A stretch of 64,000 nt of DNA, taken from assembly GCA_965207375.1 (NCBI GenBank), contig OZ242274.1, positions 1,376,001 through 1,440,000 of the forward strand, given 5' to 3'. The notes beneath the pieces are model-generated. The model was not told the DNA's origin and did no database searches. It saw only the letters and a program-made list of their open reading frames with translations. The position numbers and the translations under genes are program-made. Source of the DNA: Nitrosopumilaceae archaeon. Lineage in GTDB: Archaea; Thermoproteota; Nitrososphaeria; Nitrososphaerales; Nitrosopumilaceae. This document shows, one piece after another, positions 2,051-63,427 of the stretch (its first letter is position 1; each line of letters opens with the position of its first letter).

Positions 2051-2095
2051 TTTGGGCATTTTGGGGCTTAAATACTAAACATAATGGTGGTACTA
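2051..2095 (+). promoter_or_regulatory. Element-type promoter (GGGC-TTAAATAC) of pilin gene
   Basis: tttgggcattttggggcttaaata-taaa matches 23598-23626 at 28 of 29 nt; TATA 28 nt before ATG 2096. Confidence 0.7.
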
Positions 2096-2683
2096 ATGAC
2101 ACATAGAAACAAATCTGTGGCCCTTTCAGCCATTCTTGGCATGGTCATAGGTCTTGGACTTACCGGCGCTGCTGGAGGTGGACTATACTATGTCTTCCAA
2201 GAGCAGTCAGACCTGTTTGCGACTTCAAGCAATGTTGAGATAAAAAATCTTAATGCAATAAAGCGTGGCGATGAACTAACCATAACTGCCAACCTGAAAA
2301 ATGTAGGATCGACATCAATTACTGACGTTCATCTGTCTGAATTGACTAGTGGTGATAAGTACAAGGTAGCATACACAGAAGGTTCTGCTCCTGCTTGTAT
2401 CTTTAAAGTCAACGGGGCCCTGTTTAATATAAGCGGCAACGTTACTACTAATGCTCCTAGAATAGAAATCGCAGATGGAATATCGGGTTGTACATCTCCT
2501 TCTGCATTTAGTGAAGCGGTTCCACTTCAAGGTGGGCAGACTAAAGCATTAAAGTTCACAATAACAAGTGCAGAAAACGACAACGTGCTCATCTCTGACA
2601 GACTGACCATACAACTTAGTTATAGTTCAGGTCAAGACACACTCCAATCTGACATCTACAACACCCGCGTTAGACCGGGTTAA
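2096..2683 (+). CDS. Archaeal type IV pilin-like protein
   Basis: Class III signal-like HRNKSVA|LSAILG followed by a hydrophobic helix and beta-rich domain; ORF track start is 2084. Confidence 0.7.
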   Translation: MTHRNKSVALSAILGMVIGLGLTGAAGGGLYYVFQEQSDLFATSSNVEIKNLNAIKRGDELTITANLKNVGSTSITDVHLSELTSGDKYKVAYTEGSAPACIFKVNGALFNISGNVTTNAPRIEIADGISGCTSPSAFSEAVPLQGGQTKALKFTITSAENDNVLISDRLTIQLSYSSGQDTLQSDIYNTRVRPG

Positions 2684-2905
2684 TCCAATTTTTTATCATG
2701 ACTTTTTTTGCAGTATCACTTGTTATTGCTCTGGTTCTAGTCAGTAGTATCTTTGGAAAACACAAGGTGGGCAGACTATGTTAGAAAAAGAGGTTGTAGA
2801 GATCCTTTTAGAAGACAAGGAAATATTATTAATTACAGGACCAAAATTCCACGGATTATTTTATCGTCCTCTACTACATTTACGTAAATCCAAAGGTGAC
2901 GAATC

Positions 2906-3277
2906 ATGAATGAGACAGAAAGAATTTCTGAATATGTCGATACGGGTGAGAAAATTATCATATCAACAAGGCAGAAAAGATGGGTGCCGGGCGGCTCACC
3001 TGTAACTCCAGACACTATCTTTGTCACAGACAAGAAAATCATTATAAGAAATCCAATGATGCTTGGTCTGCGGGAGACAGTCCAGTATTATAATATTCAA
3101 GACATCATAAATATTTCACACAGAAAGGGGTACTTTTCATCGGCACTACATGTAACAGCACCCGGAATGGGCACTGCTGCACAGAGACCTGAAAATCGTG
3201 ACGGTATAATTTCAGGCATTGATAGTGTAGATGCCATACGGATTGTTCAATTGGTACGGGAGAGACAAAATGAGTGA
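2906..3277 (+). CDS. PH-domain (bPH-like) protein
   Basis: GEKII...Q.R...IFVTDKKIII...HRKGYFSSAL pattern typical of prokaryotic PH domains. Confidence 0.7.
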   Translation: MNETERISEYVDTGEKIIISTRQKRWVPGGSPVTPDTIFVTDKKIIIRNPMMLGLRETVQYYNIQDIINISHRKGYFSSALHVTAPGMGTAAQRPENRDGIISGIDSVDAIRIVQLVRERQNE

Positions 3278-3605
3278 AACTTGTGGAAGATGTGGTGCTA
3301 GTACCTCCGTAAATAAGATAAAATCCATCGGAAGCTACAAGCATACACCAATAGTATTTTATGCCAATATCTGTGCTAAGTGTCTTGTTGATTTATCATC
3401 ACTAGATCTTAACATTGATAATTACTTTAACTTTGACCACACATTTGAAATAATAGAACAAGACATAAGCAACTATTCGGAAGAGGATATCGAAATTATT
3501 GCAAGGCATGTAGCACATCACAAAATGGAATATGAGTATCAACAGAAATTATTTTTGGGTTTCAAAGATACGCTATATGACTTGCTAGAAAAAATAGAGG
3601 AATAG
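3270..3605 (+). CDS. Hypothetical Zn-binding protein
   Basis: CGRC...CAKC; ATG 3270 overlaps upstream stop. Confidence 0.55.
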   Translation: MSETCGRCGASTSVNKIKSIGSYKHTPIVFYANICAKCLVDLSSLDLNIDNYFNFDHTFEIIEQDISNYSEEDIEIIARHVAHHKMEYEYQQKLFLGFKDTLYDLLEKIEE

Positions 3606-3636
3606 GTGATATCATGAGTGAATTGTGTGAAGGCTT

Positions 3637-3870
3637 TTGAAATCTGAATTTAAAATCCTTTGTAGTACACAAGAAGATTGTCCTGATGTAAAAAAAGTTC
3701 TATACAGTATGGGATTTACACATCTCAAAGATTTGAACAAATCTCCCGCATTTGATATATCTGCACGATTTGAATTAAAAGATGCATGGCAAAAAGAAGA
3801 GATCGCCGAAAAAATATTTGAAAAGTGTCAGGAAAAAGTTCAAAGCATTCAAATCAATCTAAAAAATTAG
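3637..3870 (+). CDS. Hypothetical protein
   Basis: 77-aa ORF in the same orientation as its neighbours. Confidence 0.5.
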   Translation: MKSEFKILCSTQEDCPDVKKVLYSMGFTHLKDLNKSPAFDISARFELKDAWQKEEIAEKIFEKCQEKVQSIQINLKN

Positions 3871-3977
3871 AAAGTCTTTTGAAATATTTGAAAAACACGA
3901 TCAACTGAATTTACAAGAATTTTATCTAACAAGTTGCGTGGGAAACTATATTTAGCAATTTTAAACAATTAGGTAAT

Positions 3978-4742
3978 ATGTTGAAAAACCCCATTAAACT
4001 AAACACCATACATTGTGGGGATGTACTTGATATACTGAAAACATTTCCATCTAATTCCATTGATTTAGTTGTTACTTCTCCTCCATACAATCTTAAAAAT
4101 TCAACTGGAAATGGCCTTAAATGTGGAAATGGTGGTAAATGGCCTCAAGCTGCATTAATTGAGGGGTATGACAAGTATGATGATGCAATGCCATATGACA
4201 AGTATGTGGAATGGCAACGAAAATGTCTCAAATCCTTGATGCGTGTAATTAGTGATAACGGTGCCATATTCTACAATCACAAATGGCGAGTACAAAAGGG
4301 AATAATACAAGACAGGCATGAAATAATAGAAGAGTTTCCTGTACGACAAATCATAATCTGGGAACGTAATGGGGGAATAAACTTCAACCCTGGCTATTTT
4401 CTGCCTACATATGAAGTCATATACCTCATAGCCAAGCCTGGTTTTAAGTTGAAAAAGGATGCATCCAAAATTGGAGATGTCTGGAAAATAGGACAGGAAC
4501 AAAAGAATTGGCATCCGGCACCGTTTCCGGTAGAATTGGCATCAAGATGTATAGGTTCTACTGGTGCAGATATAGTGCTGGATCCATTTATGGGTTCAGG
4601 CAGTACAGCGATAGCTGCAGAGCAGAATGGACGTAAATGGGTCGGAATTGACATTTCAAAAGAATACTGTACTAAAGCCAAGACTAGGATCAAAACTGCT
4701 AGAAAACATGAACGTTCTCAGGATATTACTGCTTGGCGATGA
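3978..4742 (+). CDS. Site-specific DNA methyltransferase, N4-C/N6-A beta class
   Basis: VTSPPYN catalytic motif precedes HPAPFP and VLDPFMGSGST SAM-binding motif. Confidence 0.93.
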   Translation: MLKNPIKLNTIHCGDVLDILKTFPSNSIDLVVTSPPYNLKNSTGNGLKCGNGGKWPQAALIEGYDKYDDAMPYDKYVEWQRKCLKSLMRVISDNGAIFYNHKWRVQKGIIQDRHEIIEEFPVRQIIIWERNGGINFNPGYFLPTYEVIYLIAKPGFKLKKDASKIGDVWKIGQEQKNWHPAPFPVELASRCIGSTGADIVLDPFMGSGSTAIAAEQNGRKWVGIDISKEYCTKAKTRIKTARKHERSQDITAWR

Positions 4743-9290: not shown

Positions 9291-9297
9291 TAACGTG

Positions 9298-13341: not shown

Positions 13342-15324
13342 TTATTCCTTCCTTCCATCAAATTCATCAAAGTATTCTTTTGTCATTTTTCTAGATCTTG
13401 CTTTTGATACTCTGATTTGATCCCTTTCTGGTATCTTATCATGTACCATTCTTCCTGCAATGTCGTCTGTCCCTAACTCATGTGCAACTCTCGGGGTTCC
13501 CTTCCAGAAGTCTATTTCCATTTGTTTTTTAGGCTCAATGTCGAGATTACCTTTTTCATTTGTGTTATTTTTGACAAACTTTTCCAACTCTGTTTCAACA
13601 ATCTCTCTATTTCCAACATCTGATTTTGTACTATCCCAACCATGAGTTATTACACCTTGATTAAGCAGACCTGTAGCATGAGCCTTGTTTCTAGACTCAT
13701 CGGCTATCTTTTCCAAAGTTGTGCCAATTATTTTCTCTTGCTCACCTACCGGCTTTAAATTTGCAGCATCAGGATCTACAGAATGGCCCATCTGCACTCC
13801 CTGACCTATTGCACTTTGCATCTGGCCAGTCGGTATTCCTACAGAGCCTGGACCAAGATTTCCAGGAGCGCCGACACTTGCATGACTTGCAAGGGCGCCA
13901 CCGGCCATTCCAGAACCAAACGCGCCCATTATTCCCTTGATTCCCTTACCTGCCTTGTTTGCATCCATTGCAGCAGTAGCTCCAGAGGTAGCTGCCATGC
14001 CGGTAACCATGGTAGATGTATTGACTGCACTAGAGACAATCTGTGTGGCCATTTGAGTTACTGAACCCAATAATGGCACCATGATAACAGGTAGTGTAAT
14101 AGCAAAAAACACAACTCCAATAGACGTGATCCATGTATACAAATGACTGCTTACTTTGGACTCTACACCATCTTCCAAACCTCCGGCTTCAGCTACAGCC
14201 CCTGCACCTACCACAATTATAACAGCAGACATTAACGGCAACAAAAGCAACGCGGGTAGTGCCTCCAACATTTGATTTGCGAGTTTATCTACTTTGGGTA
14301 TTAGACTTAGCATCAAAAATATCGGCAAGCCTGCTGCCACCATTGCAACTAGCATGTCAGCCATGATGCCAATTAAGAGTGCCATTATCAGAATTTGTAG
14401 TGCAACTAGTGCCTTTGTTAATCCCAAAAATACATTGGTAAAGGTACCCTCTATCCCCTTTTGTACGTCGTGTTGTAAATTGCCTAGCCATGCGTTGTTG
14501 GTGATGTAATTGGTAATGGTACCTACCTGTGTTGTGGCGTTAACTGCAGTATCTGGATTTTTTCTGCGTGGCTCTTTGAGAGCATCTGCATCTGATATGA
14601 CAGTCATGTTTGTTACACCTAAAATTTCATTTCGTATGTGTTGGTCCATTCTAGTTTCAGTATCTTCGGTATTTCGTAGCATCTGTGAAAACACATATGA
14701 CACCTTTAGTTCAGGTTTGCATACATCTTGTGGGTCACCTATGCCAACTGCCTTTTCTACACTCTTGATATATGGTGACCTTTCATATTCTCCACGAATC
14801 TTGTCTGCTGACCAGTCATCAGGACAGGGCGAATCTGGATTAAATGAATATGCCGGATTTAACACCCAGTATGAAATATTTTCCATGGTATCTGATCCTA
14901 TATCCCAAATGGGTGGAAAAATTACAATCACCAACATAAACATCATCGACTTTGAAATCATTTTGTTTGCAGTACCGGGTGCCATGATTCCAGTTTCAGA
15001 TGCCTCCATAACTTTGGAGATACCGGCAACAATTAGCACTGCACCAAACACACCTACTGCTAGATATCGTATGAGGGCAAATGCCTCAAACATTTCATTT
15101 CCTATCTCTCCAGATTCAGACGTGTCAGGGTCCACATCAACATCATAATGAAATTTCGGAGTCTCAAATGCAAGACTCATGTATGTAGATTCTATTGCAC
15201 CAGAAAATGAAACTATAACACCAATTAATGCAACAATCATCATCATTAAACCGCCTATCAAAATGATAGAACCAATACCTGCAGAGCGCCCTCTCGGTGT
15301 AGATGTATTGTGGGATTTTCTCAT
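13342..15324 (-). CDS. Polytopic membrane protein, VirB6/TrbL-like conjugation channel component
   Basis: Multiple TM helices followed by a Gly/Ala-rich tail; element-type promoter upstream. Confidence 0.65.
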   Translation of the reverse strand: MRKSHNTSTPRGRSAGIGSIILIGGLMMMIVALIGVIVSFSGAIESTYMSLAFETPKFHYDVDVDPDTSESGEIGNEMFEAFALIRYLAVGVFGAVLIVAGISKVMEASETGIMAPGTANKMISKSMMFMLVIVIFPPIWDIGSDTMENISYWVLNPAYSFNPDSPCPDDWSADKIRGEYERSPYIKSVEKAVGIGDPQDVCKPELKVSYVFSQMLRNTEDTETRMDQHIRNEILGVTNMTVISDADALKEPRRKNPDTAVNATTQVGTITNYITNNAWLGNLQHDVQKGIEGTFTNVFLGLTKALVALQILIMALLIGIMADMLVAMVAAGLPIFLMLSLIPKVDKLANQMLEALPALLLLPLMSAVIIVVGAGAVAEAGGLEDGVESKVSSHLYTWITSIGVVFFAITLPVIMVPLLGSVTQMATQIVSSAVNTSTMVTGMAATSGATAAMDANKAGKGIKGIMGAFGSGMAGGALASHASVGAPGNLGPGSVGIPTGQMQSAIGQGVQMGHSVDPDAANLKPVGEQEKIIGTTLEKIADESRNKAHATGLLNQGVITHGWDSTKSDVGNREIVETELEKFVKNNTNEKGNLDIEPKKQMEIDFWKGTPRVAHELGTDDIAGRMVHDKIPERDQIRVSKARSRKMTKEYFDEFDGRKE

Positions 15325-15501
15325 TATATCACAATATACTTTAGTATTTAACGGACAAAATTCAGGTCAAAATCCACCCCAAAATGGAGAGAACAACAAT
15401 AGCAGAGAGATGTTTTGTAATTAGAAAACCATGCCTAACAAGAGTAAAAATACGTGCCCAGATCTAATTACGGTTCCCCTCTCATCTTTGCTTAAATGTA
15501 T

Positions 15502-16984: not shown

Positions 16985-17238
16985 AGTAGATATTACCCTT
17001 ACAAAATTCCTAAAATCAATCCACTCGATCTTTTCATGCTAAATGCACTCGAATTTAGCAATTAATATTTCTGCTTCAATGGGGCCGTAACGTTTTCGTT
17101 ACAGAAATATGATCGTGGACTGCCAAAGTGCACAGAATAATACATTCTCAACCACTTTAAACCTCATATCAACAACAGTAGACATCGTGGAAAATCCTGC
17201 AAATTTCATCCTTAAATACAAAATACAATTGTGGTACC

Positions 17239-17451
17239 ATGGAAAAATCACCTTCCAAAATCTGGTATATTGCTCATGCATTTTTGTGGGTAGTTTCAGG
17301 ATTTGTATGCTATATTGTCTGGCGGGATCAAAACAAACAAGCAGCAAAGATGCACCTTGTTCATTCATTGTGGCTCCCAATAATACCAACCGTACTGTTA
17401 TGGGGCCTCATATTTGCAATTGCGCCAGAAGAAATGTCTATGCTCCCGTGA
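17239..17451 (+). CDS. Small membrane protein
   Basis: Two hydrophobic segments; element-type promoter CTTAAATAC 27 nt upstream. Confidence 0.7.
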   Translation: MEKSPSKIWYIAHAFLWVVSGFVCYIVWRDQNKQAAKMHLVHSLWLPIIPTVLLWGLIFAIAPEEMSMLP

Positions 17452-20155: not shown

Positions 20156-20433
20156 AGTTTTTTTAAAAATCAGTTATTTTGGTTTTTCATAAACATTTAC
20201 AGAATATTACCCACAATACAAATACTGTGGATCATATTTTGATAAGCACAGGCCGGTTCTCTTAACCTATTTGTTGATTCAACCCCCCAATACATTTTTG
20301 TGTTATTTCCATCAGGGAATCCAATGATGTCTTGTCTGAAAGATAGTCTTGTATTGATTTTTCATACCTGATATCCACACACAAATACTAAGACAGGATT
20401 TGTCCCTTAAATACAAAACATCATTGTGGTACC

Positions 20434-21114
20434 ATGGCAAGACAAAAACACTCTGAGGCCAAAATGCCATGGCTTTCCAAAATGACCTCAATGTCGCAGC
20501 CTATTTTTGCAGTCCCACTGCTTGGTCTAGTATCTACGTACCAAGCCTTGATAATTTTTGCCCTAGGTATTCCGTCTCTGTTTATTACAATGCATATAAC
20601 CGGTGAGATACACTTGGGTTTAGCACCGTTTTTGATTTTCACAATATTTGCAATGATCAGGCCTCCACTGATAAGCTATGAAGGCAGGATGATTGCTATA
20701 CTGTCATTTCATCTTTTCAAGGGTTCGTCAAAAAAATCAAAGAAAAAGTCTAAACAGAAAACAAAGGGTTCAGGATTTTTTGGAAAGGCAGGTGCCACAC
20801 CAGACATAACAGAACCAGCACCCGTACAAACCAAACCAGAAATCATGACAGTACAGGTACATGGAGACAATCTACAAGAAATATCCATGATGCTTTCACA
20901 TCGGGGCACACCGATACGACGTCGCAAGGTATGCATACTGCTTGACGGGGACCCGATTAAAACTGTAATATCCTCGGTATCAGGCGAGGTCCTAACAATT
21001 TTATCCAACGATCTATGTGTTGGAAATCGTACAATATCCATTGCAGAAATCTCCGGCGATACCATAGGGGAGACATTGATGTCTAGGGAGATAAAATTTG
21101 TACGTATATCTTAG
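20434..21114 (+). CDS. Membrane protein, PrgI/VirB3-like N-terminus
   Basis: Two TM helices followed by a basic/soluble domain; element-type promoter upstream. Confidence 0.5.
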   Translation: MARQKHSEAKMPWLSKMTSMSQPIFAVPLLGLVSTYQALIIFALGIPSLFITMHITGEIHLGLAPFLIFTIFAMIRPPLISYEGRMIAILSFHLFKGSSKKSKKKSKQKTKGSGFFGKAGATPDITEPAPVQTKPEIMTVQVHGDNLQEISMMLSHRGTPIRRRKVCILLDGDPIKTVISSVSGEVLTILSNDLCVGNRTISIAEISGDTIGETLMSREIKFVRIS

Positions 21115-23519: not shown

Positions 23520-23641
23520 TTTTGGTGTCAGATATTACAAATTATGTTTAGAGATTTAGGTGTGGTCTATTAGTTTTGTCATACTTGTTGAGACAATTTT
23601 GGGCATTTTGGGGCTTAAATATTAAATGATATTGTGGTATC

Positions 23642-24766
23642 ATGGCAAAACCTGTATGGTACGAATTAAGACCGTACAGAACCGATACTGATGTCGGTGA
23701 AGACAGCATGTTGAAACTATTAGATCATCTAGATAAATTTCTAATTGTCATATATCGTGACGAGTCATCAAAGATACGAATTTACGTTAGGACTTTGACA
23801 CAACACCTGTCTACCATATCCACACTAAAAGGCATGGAGGCAATATACTGCAACGAGTACCCGCCTGACTTGAACGGTATGACAGTATACAAAAAATACG
23901 GTATGCGCCGACACTGTGCATATAGCATAATTCCTAAAAACATGATTGTCACCTCAATATATCGTGCCATGGGAAACATGTCTGGATGTGCATTTTTGAC
24001 ACTAAACCTGAGAAAGGTAGATGCTGCACCTCCGATAAACGACTTTATTGCTACTTGTAATCGTGGACAGAATCCAGAAAGCAAACTAACAAACGCGCTT
24101 TCAACAGGTAAATCTGAAAAAAAGGCATCACATGTATCAAAGATGACACTTGCTAGAGAAAAACTAGCAAGTAGAAATCTGTTTTTGTGCAGGATGTTTA
24201 GTGGGGTCAAAGTATCTGGGGATGATAAAATAATTGAAGCCGTGTTTCCTTCAAGGGCGTTTATTTCAAAGAAAATTGATCAAAAACAACTCAAAAAAGA
24301 TATTGTCAGAAACATTGGATTTCCACTGTTTGGAGGGGATAAAAATTTAGTTCTTTCTGATTCTGAGATCTTTGGGTTTTTATCGCTTCCAAACAATGAT
24401 GATATCTCAAATGTAGAGTTTGATATTGGTAGGCTATCTTCTACTGCATCCGGACTTGCAGAGGGCTCATTTGGTACAGAATCTGAAAAGATACAGGAAG
24501 GTACCATACAGCAAGAAGATTTCTCAGAGTCTGAGGATTCGCAGGTGCCTGTAGAGGACTCTGGTGTACTGCGGAGGTGCAATAACAGGTTACGTCCAAT
24601 ATTGATAAAATGTGGCAAAATTATTCACAAAGTTGGACAAAATCTAAACTTGTACTTGAGGAGGTGCAATAACAGGTTACGTCCAATATTGATAAAATGT
24701 GGCAAAATTATTCACAAAGTTGGACAAAATCTAAACTTGTACTTGAGGAGGAAAAACAATGTTTAA
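23642..24766 (+). CDS. Hypothetical element-backbone protein with a duplicated 29-aa C-terminal segment
   Basis: Long ORF with element-type promoter; 87-bp tandem duplication. Confidence 0.7.
   Translation: MAKPVWYELRPYRTDTDVGEDSMLKLLDHLDKFLIVIYRDESSKIRIYVRTLTQHLSTISTLKGMEAIYCNEYPPDLNGMTVYKKYGMRRHCAYSIIPKNMIVTSIYRAMGNMSGCAFLTLNLRKVDAAPPINDFIATCNRGQNPESKLTNALSTGKSEKKASHVSKMTLAREKLASRNLFLCRMFSGVKVSGDDKIIEAVFPSRAFISKKIDQKQLKKDIVRNIGFPLFGGDKNLVLSDSEIFGFLSLPNNDDISNVEFDIGRLSSTASGLAEGSFGTESEKIQEGTIQQEDFSESEDSQVPVEDSGVLRRCNNRLRPILIKCGKIIHKVGQNLNLYLRRCNNRLRPILIKCGKIIHKVGQNLNLYLRRKNNV
24574..24747. repeat. Tandem duplication, 2 x 87 bp
   Basis: 24574-24660 identical to 24661-24747. Confidence 0.95.
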
Positions 24767-31364: not shown

Positions 31365-31438
31365 GGGCCTGTGGTTCAGCTTGGTAGAACGATTGCCTGA
31401 AAGCCAATAGGTCACGGGTTCAAATCCCGTCAGGTCCA
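31365..31438 (+). tRNA. tRNA with GAA anticodon (Phe), atypical body
   Basis: GGGCCTG/CAGGTCC acceptor, GTTC/GAAC D-stem, ATTGC-CTGAAAG-CCAAT (C31:C39 mismatch), ACGGG-TTCAAAT-CCCGT. Confidence 0.85.
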
Positions 31439-31540
31439 CATTTTACTTTCCGTACAAATTCCTTGATCGACTTGAGATAGAGTTTGTACCTGATTTTGTA
31501 CTGATTTGCCCCCTTTTATACAAAATAATTCTATGTCACC

Positions 31541-31876
31541 ATGATATTAATCGCAATTGTAGCCGTTGTCATAATCTTTCTTGCCATTGGTACTGCCATG
31601 AACTATTACTCACACAGAGATGATGTTTCACAAAAACAAGAGGTCTCAAATATTATCCAAAACGACCGAATAAAGGAACAACTTACTGTATCTAGAAACG
31701 ACTCACATCTGTTTGTTGCAAACCAGTGGGGTGGAGAGTCGTCCACACTACAGGCAATAGGTATCACATGTGATGATGGGCGTGTCTTTACAACACAGCT
31801 AAAGATAAACATAACATCACTACACATCGCCAACCAGTCAAAGGTATTTGAGGAACTGAACGCCAAATGTGGCTAG
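31541..31876 (+). CDS. Pilin-like small membrane-anchored protein
   Basis: N-terminal hydrophobic helix and short beta domain; first gene of the pilus/T4SS operon. Confidence 0.55.
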   Translation: MILIAIVAVVIIFLAIGTAMNYYSHRDDVSQKQEVSNIIQNDRIKEQLTVSRNDSHLFVANQWGGESSTLQAIGITCDDGRVFTTQLKINITSLHIANQSKVFEELNAKCG

Positions 31877-36722: not shown

Positions 36723-36729
36723 AATTGTT

Positions 36730-42648: not shown

Positions 42649-42691
42649 GCCTAACTAATTGCCCTTAATAACAAAATGAAATTTTGTTTCT

Positions 42692-43396
42692 ATGAAAAGC
42701 AAGAACAAAAAATATGGAAATTTTTGCTATCTGTGTAAACTAGTACAGATACCAGAACAACAACTTGCAGTTGCCATATCTACTGCACAAACAGGCAAGC
42801 AGATACAGACAGAAACTCATACGGCATCAAGTGTACAAAGCTATCTAATTACTGTAATAGCAAAAAAAGCAAAAGTAGATGAATATCTGATAAGCATCCA
42901 AAATGCAAAAGACGTCATATTTCAAGGATGGATTCGTCTACACAAACTAAAACGTAGTGGGCGCAAAAAAAATCCTGCAATATCTAACATACTAGACATT
43001 GTGATTCTGTTAGCAATTGCAGGAGCAGCTTCTGGTGCATTTTACTATTTTGCAACTGATAGTTTTGAAACAAATTCAGCAAAAAGTATAGAAATTGTAC
43101 GATTTGATATAACCAAAGTAGGTAATTATTCAGGTAACGGGCTTGCACACGTAATAATTTACACACCTGATGACACAAATGTACGACTCGGAGGTGACAT
43201 TGCAGAAATAAGACTAACAGATGTTGCAGGCAATGCACTAGGCCTAGCTGAAATCCATGCAAGAGCAGACGGTTTTAATGTACACTATGAGGGACTAGTA
43301 AAATTTACAGGTTCAGATGCTGTACAGGGTGAATTTATCCTAGTATCCATACAGTACGGAAATCATCAAGAGGATCATGGCGTGTTGATAAAATGA
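42692..43396 (+). CDS. Pilin-like protein with a long N-terminal leader
   Basis: Internal RKKNPA|ISNILDIVILLAIAG class III-like signal about 95 aa from the start. Confidence 0.65.
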   Translation: MKSKNKKYGNFCYLCKLVQIPEQQLAVAISTAQTGKQIQTETHTASSVQSYLITVIAKKAKVDEYLISIQNAKDVIFQGWIRLHKLKRSGRKKNPAISNILDIVILLAIAGAASGAFYYFATDSFETNSAKSIEIVRFDITKVGNYSGNGLAHVIIYTPDDTNVRLGGDIAEIRLTDVAGNALGLAEIHARADGFNVHYEGLVKFTGSDAVQGEFILVSIQYGNHQEDHGVLIK

Positions 43397-48077: not shown

Positions 48078-48300
48078 CATGACTCACTTGATACCTCCAA
48101 ATTAGAGACTCCTGCACAGGCATTTGCAAGAAAGATGCCTCCTGAAGACATAGTCGAGGAGGTCACAAAATGACTACCCATTACTGGAGTGGAAATGGTA
48201 CTAGAAATCCAATGACATGTAGAGGTGTGAAATCCTAATGAAATTCAAATTAATCGATTATGGGAGTCTAACGGGGGTGAACTACTTTTGGGATCCTACA
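48078..48300 (+). mobile_element. Probable IS481-like 3' remnant
   Basis: HDSLDTSKLETPAQAFARKMPP C-terminal motif; ends ...GGATCCTACA at the gltX junction. Confidence 0.5.
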
Positions 48301-55773: not shown

Positions 55774-56520
55774 ATGAGAGTAGTTGCAGCAGTTGCATGT
55801 GAACACAAAAACGAACTTGTAAAATCAGACGGTGAATTAATTTGCCCTGATTGTGGTGTGGTAATTGTTGATAAAGAAACAGTACAGAATCAGGAAATGG
55901 AAGTACGTGCAAATAGCAAGACCACTTTATACAACAGACATAAGGTTGGCACAAGGGAACTAGTACCAAAAAACAAATCAACAGAAGGTGTAAGGAGATT
56001 TCTAAAAGGTGGAATAACAAATGGGAAAATTGCAAGAAACGACCAGTTGCTTTCAACGCTATCAAAATGCTGTAATAAATTAGGAATGAGTGAAGCAGAA
56101 AGTGAATATGTTAGAAAGCTGTACAAACGTGGCTCTGATTATACAAAAAAGAAAGATAGCCCATATGTTGCAATGTGGGCCATATACAAGTCATCTAAAA
56201 GACATTCTATACCTATACCGTCTACCAAAATACAAAGAACTGTAATTGAGGAATGGGGACGTGGTCACACCATACACATGACACACCTCCTTTGGAAAAT
56301 GATGGGTGTGCCTTTAGATTTTGATGAAACAAGTGATGAAAGATACAATTTCAGACTATATTTGAACAAAATTCTCAAAGGTAAAAAATTCAAAAAGCAT
56401 GATTATGCCATAATGGAAAGAAACGCCTGGGAGCTATACAAAAATACCTACGTGATAGGTACGAATCCGGCGCGTGCAAAAAGGGCGATCAGTGATGCAT
56501 TCAGGGTGAGGGGCGTATGA
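55774..56520 (+). CDS. Divergent TFB/TFIIB-like transcription factor
   Basis: Zn ribbon CEH...GELICPDCGVV; cyclin-fold-like CNKLGMS...LYKR...AIYKSSKRHSIP. Confidence 0.72.
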   Translation: MRVVAAVACEHKNELVKSDGELICPDCGVVIVDKETVQNQEMEVRANSKTTLYNRHKVGTRELVPKNKSTEGVRRFLKGGITNGKIARNDQLLSTLSKCCNKLGMSEAESEYVRKLYKRGSDYTKKKDSPYVAMWAIYKSSKRHSIPIPSTKIQRTVIEEWGRGHTIHMTHLLWKMMGVPLDFDETSDERYNFRLYLNKILKGKKFKKHDYAIMERNAWELYKNTYVIGTNPARAKRAISDAFRVRGV

Positions 56521-57581
56521 GTAAATCATTATCTAGTATGGCAGTATCAAAAATAAACGACCCACTGTATAGACTTACAATTACATCAAAAAAATATGTG
56601 GAATCAGTATGTAAACAAATAAAATCAGGACACATCAATGAAATACCTAATCTTATAGTTGCTGAACTAAAAGGCCAATATTATCCAATAGGAAATTTAT
56701 CAACACTTGATGCAGCACGTATTGCCAATACAAAAACACTAGTCTGTATAATCAAAAAGGCAAAAAGTAAACAAAACGTGATTGAAATGCAAATTATTAA
56801 TTCAAAAAATGAAACATACAATCCCATTGCCATGATTCGACTTGTAAAACAAATAAAAGCAACTGACAACAAAATATCTTCTGTCGTCATTCCTAAGATA
56901 TTTCTCAAACCCTGTAATCTTGAAGAGCCAGTTGAGAAAAAATTTGAACAGTTTATAGAAAATATTACAGCTACAGAATTTACAATTCCAAACATTACTC
57001 ATGTTATGTTTAGCGTATCACGTGTAAAAAAATCAAGACAACTTGATGCGTTGAATCGTGTCACGCACTATTCCAAAAATGGTGAACACTATTCGCCTCC
57101 TGACAACAAAACCCTAGTCGCCATAATGAGTGATTTTGAAAAAGAAGGAGATGAAAAACTTACTTCACATGACTATGTAGAATTTCCAGATGATGAGGAA
57201 TATGAAGAGACTCATAAAAAGGAATATGGTGAGACCAAGATGGATGTAAAATCTACAGGAAAGGATCTTGGTACATGTTTTCCAGCAGTTGGAAACATGA
57301 TAAGTCATGATTGTAAATGTGGAAGAAGATACAATATTAATTTGAAAAACGGTACGATAAAGGAGCTAGTTGACAAGGGTTCAAACATTGCTATAATAGA
57401 TACAGAAGTTGGTATGGTCTATCCACTAGGTGACAAAGAGGCAGAATATTTATCACTTGATATGTCACCTGTAATAAACTCGTACTGTATAGGTTCCAAG
57501 GACATGGGTGATTTTGTTCTGTTATCAAAACGAAAACTGACAAAAAAGATAGTTGATAAAATTCACAAGGTGATACGTTGA
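56517..57581 (+). CDS. Hypothetical protein with possible degenerate ParB/Srx N-terminus and C-terminal Zn ribbon
   Basis: QIKSGHINEIPNLIV...YYPIGN...LDAARIA; HDCKCG. Confidence 0.5.
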   Translation: MSKSLSSMAVSKINDPLYRLTITSKKYVESVCKQIKSGHINEIPNLIVAELKGQYYPIGNLSTLDAARIANTKTLVCIIKKAKSKQNVIEMQIINSKNETYNPIAMIRLVKQIKATDNKISSVVIPKIFLKPCNLEEPVEKKFEQFIENITATEFTIPNITHVMFSVSRVKKSRQLDALNRVTHYSKNGEHYSPPDNKTLVAIMSDFEKEGDEKLTSHDYVEFPDDEEYEETHKKEYGETKMDVKSTGKDLGTCFPAVGNMISHDCKCGRRYNINLKNGTIKELVDKGSNIAIIDTEVGMVYPLGDKEAEYLSLDMSPVINSYCIGSKDMGDFVLLSKRKLTKKIVDKIHKVIR

Positions 57582-58147
57582 AAGGGGTAAATTTGTGCAA
57601 ACCTAGTCCCAAATTTGCTAATTTGGGATATGATTGGTTAGATTGTAGGCTTGTTAAAGACAGCACATCATACTGTGCACTTTATATTTTAGGTGACAGG
57701 AAACTAGCAATTAAAAATTTTAAAAAACTAACAGTCAAAAAGTATCAAAAAGATCCTATTCCCTCATGGTTTAGTCGCATGATACAAAATAAACTAGTCA
57801 AAATCAAAAACAATAAGGTATCTGTAACTACAAAGGGTCACATATTGTATTCTGCCTGTGAACTTGACCTTCCGATAAATGCCTTTTTGATTTTGTCCCT
57901 AGTGTATATGAAAGTGCTCACCTTTGGAAAATATTACAAGTCAGGTGTGGATTTTGTAAATTTTTACAAACTGTCTAATTTTAATTATCATTTATTTGAA
58001 TATAATTTTAAAAAACTCTCAAATAAGAAAATCATCGTACCATACGATCCAAAACACAAGCTAAGATGGACAATTGCAGACATGGTTACCATCAAAAAAT
58101 ACCATAAAGTGCTAGTCGGAATCTACACATACATGGTAAACGCATGA
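57578..58147 (+). CDS. Basic hypothetical protein, possible winged helix
   Basis: MIQNKLVK...VSVTTKG; in operon. Confidence 0.55.
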   Translation: MKGVNLCKPSPKFANLGYDWLDCRLVKDSTSYCALYILGDRKLAIKNFKKLTVKKYQKDPIPSWFSRMIQNKLVKIKNNKVSVTTKGHILYSACELDLPINAFLILSLVYMKVLTFGKYYKSGVDFVNFYKLSNFNYHLFEYNFKKLSNKKIIVPYDPKHKLRWTIADMVTIKKYHKVLVGIYTYMVNA

Positions 58148-58815
58148 TGAACGAATATCTTTCCTTTGCAGTAACTGTCATCATGCTTGCTCCAATGGCA
58201 TGGAGTGATCTCCGTGAACGAACCGTCATGAACGACATTTTGGCAGTATCTGTTTGTATATCTGCATGCTTTTTTGTGTATACCATACTTGTAGAGTGGT
58301 CCCTTGCAGACATGTCAGTTTTAATTGCAATAGTTATGGGAGGTATCATAACTGGAACCATGTTTGTCATGTATCGTCTTGGTCTGATGGGTCTTGCTGA
58401 TGTTGCAGTTTGTGCAGTTATTACACTAATGCTTCCGGTCCTGTATAATTTTCCACTAGCCATTACAATTATAATTTTAGGATATGGTATCGGCATAGGG
58501 TACACTGTCTGTATAAATGCTAAATGCAATATAGCAGACATGTACCACAAAAGACCCTTTGATAGTTCCATAATTTTGTATCATAAAAAGCGCAAGGGGG
58601 AAAAATTCTGTATTCAGGGACATGTCTCCATAGGAAAGGTAGATGATTCTGGAAAAATACTTGCACGTGACGGTACTAGCTTGTTTGTATGTGAGGGGGA
58701 ATCTGGTCAAAGAGTTACTGTTGCCATACCAATGATTTTTATGTTTTTGATAGCAACTGTTGCCTTATTTTGTCTGGTACAGTCCGGTATTATTCTAGGC
58801 GGATTGTTTTTCTAG
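58144..58815 (+). CDS. Prepilin peptidase (A24, PibD/FlaK-like)
   Basis: AWSDLRERTV and MGLADV catalytic Asp motifs, polytopic, C-terminal IPMI. Confidence 0.8.
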   Translation: MMNEYLSFAVTVIMLAPMAWSDLRERTVMNDILAVSVCISACFFVYTILVEWSLADMSVLIAIVMGGIITGTMFVMYRLGLMGLADVAVCAVITLMLPVLYNFPLAITIIILGYGIGIGYTVCINAKCNIADMYHKRPFDSSIILYHKKRKGEKFCIQGHVSIGKVDDSGKILARDGTSLFVCEGESGQRVTVAIPMIFMFLIATVALFCLVQSGIILGGLFF

Positions 58816-61351: not shown

Positions 61352-61689
61352 TAATGCTTTCACAAAGATTATCAAACAGTACAGATAATTAAGTTATTCT
61401 GTAAAATAACGTAAGATTGTATAACTAATACCTTAGAATTTCTTATATCTGTTAACATTTACAATTTATCTAAAAGTTTTTAGATGATTGTGTGTTATTA
61501 ATAACATCCGCTTCTAGGGAATCGAACCCTAGCAACGACATCTTCTAAGGGCGTGTTGGGTACCAACCAAGCGGTGATTTTATAATAATACAAACGCTAT
61601 TTTAATAATTTTAATTCATAACGAATAACGCTAAAAATCTGTTTTTTAATGGAAAAATTCTATTATGTCTAATATCTCATAGAGTCATG
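61352..61689. repeat. Second copy of the 300-bp non-coding segment
   Basis: Colinear with 23217-23519, with a short insertion. Confidence 0.85.
61507..61574 (-). ncRNA. tRNA-like structured RNA, copy 2
   Basis: CCGCTT GGT-TGGT-ACC CAAC ACGCC CTTAGAA GATGTC GTTG CTAGGG-TTCGATT-CCCTAG AAGCGG A. Confidence 0.8.
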
Positions 61690-61804
61690 GGCCTGTTTTG
61701 ATTTTGCCTGCATAAAATTAAGGCTAGATGTTAAACTCCCTCAATTTTTGGTTATTTTGAAAGTTTCTCGATTAAGGAATTTGTGCGATATTAGGCAAAA
61801 AGTA

Positions 61805-61829
61805 GACCTGATGGGATTTGAACCCGTGA
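61805..61829 (-). repeat. att-like copy of the tRNA(GAA) 3' end, inverted
   Basis: TCACGGGTTCAAATCCCATCAGGTC, 24 of 25 nt match to 31412-31436. Confidence 0.8.
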
Positions 61830-62212
61830 GATTGAAACAAGGATCTTTAACATCTTCTCAAACACACTTGGAACTGCAGGTATACAATTTGGCACAGCAG
61901 ACAATACAAAATACAAACTAGCAAATTTTACAACAATGCTAACTGAAATGAGTCGTTCTCGCATTACTATATAATCAATAGCTGCAGATTTTAAAACTAA
62001 CAAAGATGCACCATGTGGAAAATGGATACGCAACATGATAAATGGCCTGCGTTATGATCAGACAGAGCATGTCTGCAATGAGATGTTACACCAGACAGCA
62101 CGACCTTGCAATAAAAACAATAATTCACAAAACAGACACACTGATTGCAATAGACAAACATCTCATACCAAGATACGACATGGTGAGGACCCAGTCAGAA
62201 TAGGAACACTTG
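61830..62212 (+). pseudogene. ISH3-like transposase N-terminal remnant plus a 32-bp IS-end copy
   Basis: IQFGTADNTKY...LIAIDKHLIPRYD aligns with the 52644 protein; 62181-62212 identical to 54485-54516. Confidence 0.75.
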
Positions 62213-62422
62213 CATTAATACATAATATTAGTACTGGATGGAAAACTCATGGTGTACAAACTTTGGTCGTAAATTTTTCTGACATTAAATTTTCGTGTAT
62301 GTTCAAAAACTATATCATAGAATCAGAGGTGTTCTTAGTATGTAATACACACATCGCAGGCAGGTGTCTGATGTCTGGAACTATACATAATTACTTTCAT
62401 CGCCCTAACTCTACATACCATA

Positions 62423-62470
62423 TTTGCTTAGGTGTATACTTTGTCGACTTTGCAAGGCTCAGGCATGGAT
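62423..62470. repeat. Single copy of the 40-bp array unit plus its leader
   Basis: tttgctta--tgtatactttgtcgactttgcaaggctcaggc-tggat matches 15487-15534. Confidence 0.9.
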
Positions 62471-62548
62471 GTATAGAAAAAGACTCGGATAATTTGTGCA
62501 ATTAATTTTCAAATTTCGTCCTTAAATAGATTTGATTAATTAGACACC

Positions 62549-63427
62549 ATGGTTACACCGGTAGGACTTGATATCGGTACCGGATTCACAAAAGTATCCG
62601 GACTAGGCAAACAATTATCATTTCCATCTCTTTATGCATCACGATATACTGACGGCAGGACGATACACAACATGAATCAGTCAAAAAACATCCTTGAGGA
62701 GTGTGTTGGAAGACATGCTATTCCAATGGGTGAATCGCGTACAGGCACAATGATACGTCCCGTAAAACATGGACTCCCATGTCATGACAAGGGATATTCT
62801 AAATTGACAACAGAGGCCCTATCACTTGTTGGTATAAGCAATATATCTGATGCATATATTGTAGCAGGAGTAACCTTTGATGCAAAATCAGGCATTAAAA
62901 GAATTAAAAGAATAATCAAGTCACTAAAGCCCCATATGATCAAGATTGTACCACAGGCCTATGGAACCATGACATATTGTAACAAAAAAAGTGGAACCGT
63001 TGTAAATATAGGCCATGGAACCACAGAAGTAATCCATATCAAATCAGGAGTTATAGAGGGTAGTTCCATTCCAAAGGCTTCAAACTTTGTAACGGATCAG
63101 CTTGACAAAACACGTGGTTCCTATGTCAATTACAAAAAACTGTTTTCACAAAATGAATCCCTTACACAAAAACTAGTGTATCATTTGGCAGAACACATTG
63201 CAGATGAGGTGACCCGTATAGCATCACATGATAATATCATACTTGCAGGAGGGGGCTCGTTGCTTCCAGGAATGCGCGAAAACTTGGAAAAAATACTTTA
63301 TACTAAAACCATAGTGCCTGACAATCCAGTATTTTCAAATGCCATAGGTCTTGAAATGATAGCCAAAACAATGGTAGAACAGGCAGAACCAAAGACAGAA
63401 CATACATCTGTTGAAAAAATACTCTAA
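62549..63427 (+). CDS. ParM/StbA-like actin ATPase
   Basis: GLDIGTGFTK, VPQAYG, VNIGHGTTE, ILAGGGS, NAIG actin motifs. Confidence 0.85.
   Translation: MVTPVGLDIGTGFTKVSGLGKQLSFPSLYASRYTDGRTIHNMNQSKNILEECVGRHAIPMGESRTGTMIRPVKHGLPCHDKGYSKLTTEALSLVGISNISDAYIVAGVTFDAKSGIKRIKRIIKSLKPHMIKIVPQAYGTMTYCNKKSGTVVNIGHGTTEVIHIKSGVIEGSSIPKASNFVTDQLDKTRGSYVNYKKLFSQNESLTQKLVYHLAEHIADEVTRIASHDNIILAGGGSLLPGMRENLEKILYTKTIVPDNPVFSNAIGLEMIAKTMVEQAEPKTEHTSVEKIL

Follow-up and report, generated by a model that had tools for sequence, protein, structure and literature searches.

An element-specific promoter class and a compact TFB homologue in a thaumarchaeal integrated conjugative element

The window analysed here, a 64,000-nt stretch of DNA from an archaeon of the ammonia-oxidiser type, contains the greater part of a thaumarchaeal-type integrated conjugative element, and it raises the question of which factor reads the unusual promoters that head the pilus and transfer genes. 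The element encodes a type IV pilus platform, pilins, a prepilin peptidase, a VirD4/TraD-like ATPase and an actin-like partition protein, with VirB4/TraG-like and PilB/FlaI-like ATPases encoded just upstream of the window; it is broken up by insertion sequences and cargo, and one of the eight tRNA-Phe genes on contig C1 lies inside the split conjugation module (Table 1). A sequence-only reading had proposed that eight of its genes share a promoter design with a non-canonical BRE, which would be recognised by the C-terminal helix-turn-helix of a divergent TFB encoded by the element itself. The promoter observation was confirmed as a whole, and both the element-specific class and the divergent TFB homologue stood, while the BRE reading head found no support in the form proposed.

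Table 1. Class promoters and associated features in window coordinates (LOO, leave-one-out score; box, G/C-rich box before the TATA element)
Feature	Position	Strand	Remarks
Class promoter, 195-aa pilin-like gene (2096-2683)	2052..2098	+	27.9 bits, rank 1/63; box GGGGC; three ATTT..SSC boxes in tandem, TTAAATAC starting 28 nt ahead of ATG, then ..GGTGGTACTA
Class promoter, 660-aa polytopic membrane protein (13342-15324)	15322..15367	-	23.0 bits; box GTCCG; three tandem boxes; protein with 7 predicted TM
Class promoter, 70-aa two-TM protein (17239-17451)	17196..17241	+	LOO 41.8 bits; box CATCC
242-aa secreted protein	17653-18381		Follows 17239-17451
Class promoter, 20434-21114 (226 aa, 2 TM)	20391..20436	+	Box GTCCC
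677-aa protein, weak SNase-like end	21098-23131		Behind promoter 20391..20436
Class promoter, 23642-24766 (374 aa, no family)	23599..23644	+	Box GGGGC; two tandem boxes
102-aa Cys-rich protein	24759-25067		Behind promoter 23599..23644
tRNA-Phe(GAA)	31365..31439	+	Inside split conjugation module
Weaker class promoter, long operon 31541-41455	31498..31543	+	LOO 14.9 bits; box CCCCC; three boxes spaced ~11 nt; operon also includes a small TM protein and two large secreted ones
UpsF/TadC-like platform	36664-38604		Operon 31541-41455; UpsF-like (E 9.7e-68)
VirD4/TraD/CedD-like ATPase	38579-41455		Operon 31541-41455; weak CedD/TraD-like matches (E about 1e-7)
Weaker class promoter, 42692-43396 and 43393-43845 (pilin-type N-termini)	42649..42694	+	LOO 11.6 bits; box TGCCC
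768-aa secreted protein	43842-46148		Behind promoter 42649..42694
Compact TFB/TFIIB homologue, 248 aa	55774..56520	+
ParB/sulfiredoxin-fold protein	56517..57581	+	Overlaps TFB-like stop codon; profile matches ParB 4umk_A (E 5.3e-4), sulfiredoxin (E 1.3e-3)
189-aa protein (no family) and A24 prepilin peptidase (58144-58815)	57578..58815	+	With the two preceding genes, a four-gene cassette
Weaker class promoter, actin-like (ParM/MreB-fold) gene (62549-63427)	62506..62551	+	LOO 15.8 bits; box CGTCC

Architecture and distribution of the promoter class

All eight upstream sequences are real and agree with the sequence-only reading: a TTAAATAC-type TATA element starts 27 nt before the ATG of 15324 (minus strand), 17239, 20434, 23642, 31541, 42692 and 62549, and 28 nt before that of 2096 alone, and at every site it is preceded by a G/C-rich box. 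The shared design runs from ATTT through the G/C-rich box and TTAAATAC, which sits 27-28 nt ahead of the start codon, to AAAA..TTGTGRTAYC; the T-tract and box (ATTTnSSSC) abut the TATA element, and an A-run leads to a conserved initiator, TTGTGRTAYC, which ends at the ATG, so that the mRNAs of the class would be leaderless. The sequence TTGTGGTAYCATG is exact in 17239, 20434 and 23642 and near-exact in 2096 and 15324; these five sites are nearly identical over ~43 nt, while the other three have only the architecture in common. In leave-one-out matrix scoring the five reached 34-42 bits, while none of the 8.6 million positions of a reversed-genome null exceeded 21.7 bits; 31541, 42692 and 62549 scored only 11.6-15.8 bits and are therefore not significant genome-wide by sequence alone. 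A second, independent matrix, trained solely on six members outside the window, was run on 63 window genes, over 80 nt of upstream sequence for each. It placed the eight sites at ranks 1-8, each exactly at -27 or -28, with 27.9, 23.2, 23.0, 19.7, 18.0, 15.5, 14.6 and 9.0 bits; rank 9 obtained just 4.0 bits, and the original list is thus complete for the window. The two hicB-like cargo genes (7755, minus strand; 30520, plus strand), said to lack the motif, both scored below 0 with this matrix.

The class differs from host promoters both in the position of the TATA element and in its flank. At least three of the four nucleotides before the TATA element are G or C at 7/8 sites, compared with 12/143 host promoters (Fisher p = 1.2e-6), and the BRE position is G/C-rich and A-poor, whereas host promoters carry few G/C there. 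The TATA element opens with C or G at 14/14 class sites but in only 12 of 135 host promoters. Host TATA elements lie about 2 nt further upstream: among 164 leaderless candidates the TATA 8-mer starts at -31 to -29 in 88 and at -28 in 8, the latter being the class position in the same 8-mer register. When TTAAATA starts were counted in 28 host cases, 19 fell at -28 to -30 and one at -27.

The class extends beyond the window. On C1 further members were found at 1370136(-), 1370512(+), 1374722(+), 1375473(+), 1448286(-), 1448719(-) and 1465395(+), and remnants at 1341003(-), 2016.4 kb, 234 kb and 1995 kb. A genome-wide scan with the eight-site matrix yielded 15 positions above 22 bits and none in the reversed-genome null, and the matches outside the training set cluster at 1341-1466 kb of C1. 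A covariance model (R1) returned 13 matches with E < 1e-4 in this genome (G000), namely 12 training sites and one new site. Under a rule of architecture only (box with at least 4/5 G/C; TT[ATG]WWW 26-28 nt before the start), the 98 kb island has 12 sites and is 9-fold denser in them than the remaining 2059 kb of C1, which has 28; by this rule a peak in TATA distance is seen in the island only, with 11 of 19 sites at 27-28. The class is element-specific, heading the conserved backbone operons and missing from cargo genes.

Conservation in related elements

All eight motif genes have homologues in a syntenic element (G031), whereas most cargo genes do not; this synteny and the matrix ranking support the earlier claim that the class heads backbone operons and is absent from cargo. 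Class-like promoters with a G/C box and a TATA element at 26-28 nt head orthologous genes in G031, G001, G019, L056 and L057, although such a box carries little weight where the genome itself has 50-68 % G+C. The co-occurrence of the TFB-like gene with the promoter architecture, suggested as a check of the original reading, was thus seen in five related elements. In the stretch fetched for G031, 12 class-like sites lie at 35-72 kb and five in the other 83 kb. What is conserved is the architecture only, not the sequence: in the four genomes whose TFB-like genes are closest, the exact G000 motif was not found, R1 giving no match with E <= 0.1 and one match of E 0.47 on the G019 element contig, and no clear class was seen in more distant elements. 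Relatives of the element are also present in Nitrosopumilus sp. and Nitrosocaldus sequence records.

The element-borne TFB-like protein

The product of gene 55774 is a genuine, divergent and compact TFB homologue, as indicated by its family profile, hhalign and structure matches. It comprises, in order, a C-x-H...C-x-x-C ribbon, a short B-reader, a B-linker-like motif and a first cyclin repeat, after which only three further helices follow. With the query, 27 proteins were found at E <= 1e-3 among 1.84 billion representatives, and the protein and its 25 aligned relatives measure 210-349 aa, mostly 235-276. The family profile matched TFIIB chains with E 4.6e-11 and hhalign gave 97.8 % probability against the host TFBs, while the AlphaFold model (pLDDT 85.8) had TFIIB, TFB and Brf as its top Foldseek and VIA matches. 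Only its zinc ribbon, its linker and its first cyclin repeat can be aligned with host TFBs (residues 7-183 with 10-210 of 300), and structural alignment with the Pyrococcus TFB core of the BRE/TATA complex runs from chain residue 1100 to 1269 in a 201-residue chain. The recognition-helix motif GVTEVTIRNR, present in 3/3 host TFBs, was not found in the 55774 protein. Because the canonical helix-turn-helix of the second repeat is missing, the proposal that this protein reads the BRE with its C-terminal helix-turn-helix finds no support in its original form.

The three canonical TFBs and two TBPs of the host are all encoded outside the element, which supplies a TFB-type subunit only. In all six related elements the TFB-like protein is the only recognisable transcription factor, and its gene always adjoins a ParB-like gene. 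The upstream region of the TFB-like gene itself is not of the class in G000 (score -0.4), G031 and G001, where it lacks the G/C box, and is borderline in L056; in G044 and G059 it has a host-like -30 spacing.

Candidate readers of the class

We tentatively favour an explanation, plausible though short of probable, in which the compact TFB-like factor drives the class promoters with host TBP and RNA polymerase, replacing host TFB. Host TFB would transcribe the TFB-like/ParB-like cassette from its ordinary promoter; the factor so made would then act with TBP and the polymerase at the class promoters, displacing host TFB and turning on pilus and transfer genes together, much as an alternative sigma factor does. 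Since the factor lacks the BRE-reading helix and its B-reader is shortened, we propose a non-canonical specificity: either the three-helix C-terminal unit may touch the G/C box, or an altered B-reader may be responsible, which would fit the conserved initiator and the 2 nt shorter spacing from TATA to start. Against the TFB-like factor stand the absence of the obvious reading mechanism, the weak match of three of the eight sites, the fact that related elements keep the architecture but not the motif itself, and the tandem boxes, which an initiation factor would not appear to need and which resemble sites of a cooperative DNA-binding regulator.

The tandem upstream boxes and the near-palindromic initiator give scope for a further regulator. 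In 8/15 class promoters the TATA-proximal box has one or two additional ATTT..SSC boxes upstream of it, at 8-13 nt spacing, and the initiator consensus TGRTAYCA, over the presumed start, is a palindrome such as would be expected of a dimeric operator. It is unlikely, yet deserves serious attention, that the boxes are operators of a separate element-encoded regulator, with host TFB and TBP initiating at deliberately weak-BRE promoters and the TFB-like protein serving another role. Candidates would be a ParB-like global repressor, of which KorB of IncP plasmids is an example, the 189-aa cassette protein and the Cys-rich protein at 24759. Such a regulator could block via the TATA-proximal box and the start-site operator, or recruit in the manner of TFB-RF1 and EarA, activators at archaeal promoters whose poor BRE is offset by a protein bound just upstream (described in PMC5937170, PMC5512572). 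Like the tandem boxes, EarA-type sites come in repeats; we take these systems as models and claim no membership. The missing BRE-reading helix also speaks for a separate regulator, as does the ParB/Srx-fold protein, whose gene is co-transcribed with the TFB-like one in every related element. However, 7/15 promoters, including the strong 17239 and 20434, have no extra boxes, and the palindrome is unspecific, as TGRTAYCATG occurs 111 times in the assembly, 70 times on C1 and 17 of these in the island. Moreover, tblastn found no counterpart of the 189-aa protein in related elements, and in L057 the gap between the ParB-like gene and the peptidase is too small for a gene. A separate regulator would also leave the shortened spacing unexplained.

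An improbable alternative requires no dedicated factor: the promoters would be duplication or recombination copies of one ancestor within the element, read by host TFBs as ordinary, weak leaderless promoters whose G/C box lowers basal expression. Five of the eight sites are as alike as one would expect of recent copies, related elements do not keep the exact sequence, and the existence of some host promoters with a G/C-rich flank (12/143) or TATA at -28 (8/164) agrees with this. Nevertheless, orthologous operon heads in the five other elements keep the 26-28 nt spacing and the G/C box while sequence and base composition diverged (38 to 68 % G+C), which indicates that the architecture is under selection; the design is missing from cargo genes and from the TFB-like gene of the same element, and neutral descent cannot explain the conserved, non-transcribed 10 nt before the ATG. 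Chance likeness of AT-rich upstream regions has a negligible probability and is rejected by the leave-one-out scores (34-42 bits, where the null goes no higher than 21.7) and by the independent matrix, in which the eight sites take the top eight ranks among 63 genes, each at -27 or -28, even though TATA-like words are common in a genome of 38 % G+C, with 276 copies of TTAAATAC in the assembly.

The TFB-like factor invites comparison with Sulfolobus TFB3, which lacks a cyclin core, works with TFB1 and has the Ups pili and the Ced DNA-import system among its targets; in the present element the platform protein is UpsF-like and the ATPase has weak CedD/TraD-like matches. The 55774 protein instead keeps the ribbon, linker and full first cyclin repeat, so that it could replace TFB, and it is borne by a mobile element, whereas TFB3 is host-borne. 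TFB3 is likewise described as a shortened TFB paralogue, and it activates DNA-damage genes (PMC6101594, PMC6101591), and the 55774 protein is a candidate for a similarly dedicated activator of a gene set. In haloarchaea, multiple TFB/TBP pairs are described with promoter-specific use (PMC2396416, PMC2121645), sharing the sigma-like idea of promoter choice at the BRE region by alternative TFBs; those are full-length host paralogues with a canonical helix-turn-helix, whereas the 55774 protein is element-borne and C-terminally short, and its putative promoters differ in spacing and initiator too.

Archaeal type IV pilus loci also hold TFIIB homologues, arCOG01981 and arCOG05559, as predicted regulators (Makarova et al., 2016, PMC4858521). 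By their descriptions there, the former has a zinc finger and two cyclin domains and the latter one cyclin, which sets apart the 55774 protein with its one full repeat and three helices; the main text does not use the word 'promoter' or give a cis element. That thaumarchaeal conjugative elements carry TFIIB homologues had been published before and is not a discovery made in this window (Krupovic et al., 2019, PMC6563490): the elements described there likewise have VirD4/VirB4-type ATPases, a TadC/UpsF-type platform, a prepilin peptidase and pilins, and their TFIIB homologue is directly followed by a ParB-like gene. In the main text of that article the word 'promoter' is absent, and its passages on the homologue propose no target; relative to that text, what is new is a candidate cognate promoter class with a shorter TATA-to-start spacing, and a factor that breaks off after helix three of its second cyclin repeat. 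With this reduced version of the general transcription factor TFB, the element brings along a protein that may read its unusual promoters.

The promoter class and its contrast with host promoters

All eight upstream regions that the sequence-only reading had put forward were re-read identically, and alignment of these with four sites from the flanks of the window gave the consensus CAAATTTnGnCC TTAAATAC AAAATAnTATTGTGnTACC ATG (12 sites; genes and promoters are named here by their start coordinate in the window). In a leave-one-out analysis, where each site was scored against the matrix from the other seven and the reversed whole assembly served as null, the sites at 2096, 15324, 17239, 20434 and 23642 reached 34-42 bits, and those at 31541, 42692 and 62549 scored 14.9, 11.6 and 15.8 bits, respectively; the former are therefore regarded as a tight family and the latter as three looser members. 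The null maximum was 21.7 bits, and 15 real positions exceeded 22 bits compared with none in the null. A second, independent matrix of 25 nt (box, TATA and 4 nt), trained on six sites outside the window and applied to 80 nt upstream of the 63 window genes, placed the eight noted genes at ranks 1-8, all at -27 or -28, with the ninth gene at 4.0, so the list is complete for the window and none had been missed. Both hicB-like genes, whose promoters had been said to lack the motif, were left unmatched by this matrix, as were the other cargo genes and also the gene for the TFB-like factor itself.

The spacing of the class fits leaderless transcription, as the TATA lies 27-28 nt before the start codon, a pyrimidine occupies -1 in 11/12 aligned sites (A at 15324) and A is found at +1 in 12/12. 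An architecture-only rule was also applied, requiring a box with at least 4/5 G/C that ends in G or C, followed by TT[ATG]WWW 26-28 nt before the start, where the first four starts of each ORF with a minimum of 60 aa were allowed. This rule retrieved 12 sites in the island around the element (1368-1466 kb of contig OZ242274.1, hereafter C1) vs 28 in the other 2059 kb, and the distance peak at 27-28 nt was seen in the island only. The initiator word TGRTAYCATG alone was 3.6-fold enriched in the island, most of its copies lying away from gene starts. Altogether the class comprises about 16 promoters, ranging from near-identical to architecture-similar, that head transfer genes; members and degenerate copies beyond the window are listed with the element's gene content in the table. 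Around one of the degenerate copies, C1 2016145-2016829 duplicates, in degenerate form, the surroundings of window 1790-2100, with two small-ORF paralogues of 60-64 % identity, and is probably the remnant of another element.

Features of the element and class promoters outside the window
Feature	Coordinates	Frame	Strand	Product or evidence
UpsF/TadC-type pilus platform	36664-38604	window		T2SSF E 7.2e-19, UpsF E 9.7e-68 (Pfam, NCBIfam)
VirD4/TraD/CedD-like ATPase	38579-41455	window		Pfam TrwB_AAD_bind, AAA_10, DUF87; NCBIfam TraD, CedD, VirB4
Second AAA_10/TraG P-loop ATPase (VirB4/TraG-type)	1370512-1372416	C1, outside window
T2SSE ATPase (PilB/FlaI-type)	1368676-1370136	C1, outside window	minus
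Prepilin peptidase	58144-58815	window		Peptidase_A24 E 2.6e-6
Actin-like protein	62549-63427	window		Pfam/NCBIfam
Pilin-type N-termini	2096, 42692, 43393	window		by-eye reading; no family match
Cargo		window		two restriction-modification systems, DprA, HicAB, insertion sequences
Class promoter	1370136	C1	minus	PilB/FlaI-type ATPase
Class promoter	1370512	C1		VirB4/TraG-type ATPase
Class promoter	1374722	C1		108-aa membrane protein
Class promoter	1375473	C1		172-aa protein
Class promoters	1448286 and 1448719	C1		two paralogous 102-aa proteins
Class promoter with 6-nt longer spacer	1465395	C1		173-aa protein
Degenerate copy	1341003	C1		before paralogue of 15324 membrane protein
Degenerate copy	234059			before truncated copy of the 15324-protein paralogue
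Degenerate copy	1995 kb
Degenerate copy	2016408-2016447 (2016.4 kb)	C1		class promoter with TTGAATAC replacing TTAAATAC

The class differs from host promoters in three measurable respects, namely a G/C box in place of the A-rich BRE, a TATA 2 nt nearer the start and a conserved, non-AT initiator. For the host, leaderless candidates were ORFs of 100 aa or more, read from their first ATG, whose TATA 8-mer deviates from TTTAWATA by at most one mismatch; being aligned on near-consensus TATA words, this set is biased to strong TATAs. An EM motif search of 2038 upstream regions of the host ended in an A/T pattern of low information and was set aside. The host 8-mer starts at -31 to -29 in 88/164 candidates and at -28 in 8, compared with -28 for the class in the same register. 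Likewise, TTAAATA stands at -28 to -30 in 19/28 host cases and at -27 in one, and in the class at -27, once at -28. At least three G/C in the 4 nt before the 8-mer were counted at seven of the eight initial sites vs 12/143 host promoters (135 leaderless and 8 tRNA; Fisher p = 1.2e-6), and 10/14 class sites carry at least three G/C in the last 4 positions vs the same 12/143. The first base of the 8-mer is C or G in 14/14 class sites vs 12/135 host promoters, and A is missing from the 6 nt before the 8-mer in 9/14 vs 6/135 host leaderless candidates. The canonical purine/A-rich BRE directly 5' of the TATA is absent from the class sites, and host tRNA promoters, read by eye, have A-rich flanks such as CAAAG, AGAAAC and AAAAGA. 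The proposal of a non-canonical BRE thus holds in that the class flank is G/C-rich and A-poor against the host; since the host BRE signal is itself weak (A 0.49 at -4), 'non-canonical' denotes a departure from host promoters rather than from any sharp consensus among them.

The assembly consists of four contigs, of which C1 (2.16 Mb, 38 % G+C) is densely coding and C2-C4 are not, so C1 was treated as the archaeal chromosome. The host genome carries three canonical TFB genes and two TBP genes, none within the window. As a side observation, C2, C3 and C4 (0.43, 0.78 and 0.93 Mb) have 11-19 % of their length in open frames of at least 150 codons vs 78 % on C1, an almost nil TATA-to-ATG signal and odd clusters of tRNA-Arg and tRNA-Thr genes; unlike an archaeal chromosome, they may belong to another organism or be a different kind of replicon, an oddity not flagged by assembly quality figures of 99.95 % complete and 0.06 % contaminated.

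The element, its island and its relatives

The traits by which PMC6563490 describes thaumarchaeal integrative-conjugative elements were found here, i.e. a pair of VirB4/TrbE-like and VirD4/TraG-like ATPases, a TadC-type platform, a prepilin peptidase, pilins, and a TFIIB homologue directly upstream of a ParB-like gene, the two overlapping by 4 nt (55774-56520 and 56517-57581). The profile of the second gene aligned with ParB 4umk_A at E 5.3e-4 and with sulfiredoxin at E 1.3e-3, pointing to a ParB/sulfiredoxin fold; such a gene after a TFB-like gene is the arrangement published for thaumarchaeal elements in the main text of PMC6563490. Element relatives were found in Nitrosopumilus sp. and Nitrosocaldus records.

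Related loci were gathered with an alignment of the ATPase. Genome G031, of the same family, and G001, of the same genus, each carry the backbone in synteny and as one contiguous stretch (about 28 kb in G031), G019 and G036 have portions of it on short contigs, and loci L056 and L057 add two further copies; the TFIIB-homologue/ParB-like pair is present in all six. Homologues of all eight motif genes occur in G031. A covariance model of the motif (R1) gave no match at E <= 0.1 in G001, G031, G019 and G036. The orthologous operon heads nevertheless carry a TATA-like word 26-28 nt before the start and a G/C box mostly ending in C, often preceded by ATTT, as in G031 (ATTTTCCCGC-TTTATAAT), L056 (ATTTCCCCC-TTAAAACG) and the AT-rich G019 (TTTAGGGAGC-TTAAATAG). 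Thus, the class sequence is element-specific, and only the architecture is common to related elements. This architecture accompanies the TFB-like/ParB-like pair in G031, G001, G019, L056 and L057, in agreement with the co-occurrence expected of a dedicated factor. In G031, 12 architecture sites fall inside the element vs 5 in the other 83 kb examined. The G/C box alone is weak evidence in genomes of 50-68 % G+C, and the fixed spacing is the stronger point; the G031 flanks suggest a host spacing of 29-30 nt vs 26-27 nt inside the element, a weak comparison because a repeated gene family swells the flank counts. More distant elements (the G044 and G059 regions, and a 40-locus set intended to be low in G+C, from which the G+C cut-off excluded none) displayed no clear class, with G/C-box counts of 0-5 per distance. 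No relative of the 23642 protein turned up in a metagenome scan.

The promoter of the TFB-like gene itself departs from the class and reads TAATAAAC at about -31 in the present genome, ATATC-TTATATTA in G031, TATTC-TTTAATAT in G001 and GGAACA-TTTAAATA at -30 in both G044 and G059, and that of L056 is borderline for the class. In the G031 element, the frame of the ParB-like gene (L023:8135-8995) is interrupted by a stop at codon 205 of the part aligned, and this element may be decaying.

Several observations concern the island as such. C1 holds eight tRNA-Phe(GAA) genes (823190, 1341225, 1355322, 1407365, 1444064, 1677242, 1921024 and 1974998), five of them with near-identical 70-nt upstream regions, and the one at 1407365 (window 31365-31439) stands midway in the split conjugation module; the pattern suggests that mobile elements have integrated repeatedly, either at tRNA-Phe or with a copy on board. 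At window 48282-48731, the minus strand carries a 149-aa ORF whose end corresponds to residues 1-45 of a class I Glu/Gln-tRNA synthetase domain. With 92 % identity to the host GluRS gene located at C1 820 kb, this ORF is a duplicated piece of a gene and may mark an old integration or recombination event. Together with the tRNA-Phe copies at C1 1341225, 1355322, 1407365 and 1444064, it suggests a composite island. An MvaI/BcnI-type restriction endonuclease is split into ORFs 4733-5134 and 5140-5496, one matching the N-terminal and the other the C-terminal half of the family, and is probably inactivated; the adjoining N4/N6 methylase (3978-4742) is intact. A DDE transposase gene likewise stands between an HD-domain gene and the C-terminal, 'HD associated' part of the latter (51839-52618, 52644-53801 and 53850-54443), a disruption by an insertion sequence; an intact 461-aa version is encoded at C1 1345 kb. 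The IS66-family transposase at 18751-20121 has 31 tblastn matches elsewhere on C1, many more than 99 % identical, and one IS66 copy lies within the backbone, between the 17239 and 20434 operons. Besides, a gene for a 1663-aa protein (25257-30248) sits between two backbone operons and carries no class promoter; the protein has no Pfam match, six C1 paralogues (39-77 % identical) and 52 % identical relatives in genomes G033 and G022.

A compact TFB-like factor

The 55774 protein (248 aa) was the only sequence returned by a word-indexed protein search with it as query, while a full HMMER search found 26 relatives among 1.84 billion representatives, mostly of 235-276 aa. A zinc ribbon is recognizable, for which the Pfam model Zn_Ribbon_TF matches the 55774 protein weakly (E 6.8e-4, 19.6 bits, under the 29-bit cut-off) and 15/26 family members at E <= 0.01; the Pfam TFIIB repeat is matched by 6/26. 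The ribbon ligands C9, H11, C24 and C27 are nearly invariant and form a C-H-C-C set, not C4. The stretch from ribbon to linker is about nine residues shorter than in host TFBs and does not contain their EWRSF motif, with model confidence there running from 59-64 to 80; hhalign paired TTLYNRHKVGTRELVP with the host TSLTMHDMGLSTIIG, which is linker-like. The first cyclin repeat is likewise present, as the family profile aligned with TFIIB chains at E 4.6e-11 over positions 17-158/179 (ribbon, linker and first repeat), and hhalign against the three host TFBs gave a probability of 97.8 % over residues 7-183 (183 pairs with 210 of 300). Five helices span residues 84-175 at pLDDT 95-98 (85.8 for the whole model), and the top structural matches are TFIIB, TFB and Brf.

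The second cyclin repeat with its BRE-reading helix-turn-helix was not found, and three helices (187-201, 208-225 and 231-243) follow the first repeat. Structural alignment to 1d3u_B, the Pyrococcus TFB core in a BRE/TATA complex, covers chain residues 1100-1269 of the 201-residue chain (Z 10.8, rmsd 4.1 A, 161 aligned), and alignments to human TFIIB stop at 271-272. No sequence alignment to the host TFBs extends past residue 183, and GVTEVTIRNR, found in all three host TFBs, is absent from the 55774 protein. G229 and R234 in the last two helices are nearly invariant, and these helices might act as a substitute reading head. In complex prediction, residues 78-248 of the TFB-like family modelled with host TBP scored 0.03 and 0.08 vs a mark of 0.32, values that speak neither for nor against binding. 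The 55774 protein is therefore a real member of the TFB/TFIIB family without one defining feature, the canonical BRE-reading head. Of the private TFB regulon proposed by the sequence-only reading, the element-specific class and the genuine TFB homologue stand, and the reading of the BRE by a canonical C-terminal head is not supported for this protein.

Candidate readers of the class and their significance

We tentatively favor the compact TFB-like factor as the reader of the class promoters, at somewhat less than an even chance. A host-type promoter would drive the TFB-like/ParB-like cassette, the compact TFB would then displace host TFB at the class promoters, and the pilus, secretion and partition operons would be turned on together. 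The constant spacing, 2 nt shorter than in the host, and the 10 nt before the ATG, which are conserved, non-transcribed and not AT-rich, are more readily explained by a changed initiation factor than by a classical regulator. In known TFB/TFIIB complexes, the B-reader and linker act at the position just before the start.

A separate regulator reading these promoters is a rather less probable alternative, which two other features fit better. Extra ATTT(T)nnnSC boxes, one or two in tandem and 8-13 nt apart, lie upstream of the TATA-proximal box in 8/15 class promoters (in the window at 2000-2070, 15360-15400, 23580-23615, 31470-31515 and 62480-62520), and the initiator TGRTAYCA is palindromic; the tandem boxes may serve a regulator as a binding array or, as phased T-tracts, bend the DNA. 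That no dedicated factor serves the class at all is less probable again. A more far-reaching form of the compact-TFB reading, which we consider unlikely, is an orthogonal initiation system, in which the factor, with its short B-reader and without the canonical BRE-reading helix, would read the G/C-box promoter and set the start 2 nt nearer the TATA. Only its own initiation would then begin exactly at the AUG and yield a translatable leaderless mRNA, and initiation by host TFB, falling within the codon, would be unproductive.

According to the main text of PMC6563490, TFIIB homologues adjoin ParB in all thaumarchaeal conjugative elements, and that of PMC4858521 ranks them first among the regulators predicted in archaeal pilus loci. 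The word 'promoter' is absent from both main texts, and no target for these homologues was found there. Truncated or alternative TFBs are described as dedicated regulators in Sulfolobus (PMC6101594, PMC6101591) and haloarchaea (PMC2396416, PMC2121645), and no description of a cognate promoter class for element TFIIB homologues was found in main-text literature. New here are the promoter class, its three differences from the host, its conservation at the level of architecture and the domain structure of the truncated factor. Given the recurrence of TFIIB homologues in archaeal conjugative elements and pilus loci, the window provides a concrete, testable target.

If the compact TFB does read the class, it would offer a clear example of an alternative TFB selecting a promoter class, and the first such example from a mobile element; BRE-side specificity would then be achievable without the canonical helix-turn-helix. 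The orthogonal system, if true, would amount to a sigma-like switch of promoter specificity in archaea that is encoded on a mobile element and works by promoter recognition as well as by the geometry of the start site. To our knowledge, gene transfer in archaea of the ammonia-oxidizer type is almost unstudied and genetic tools are lacking. Even if another protein reads the class, the set would still define a conjugation switch of these archaea, in its regulon as well as its operator.
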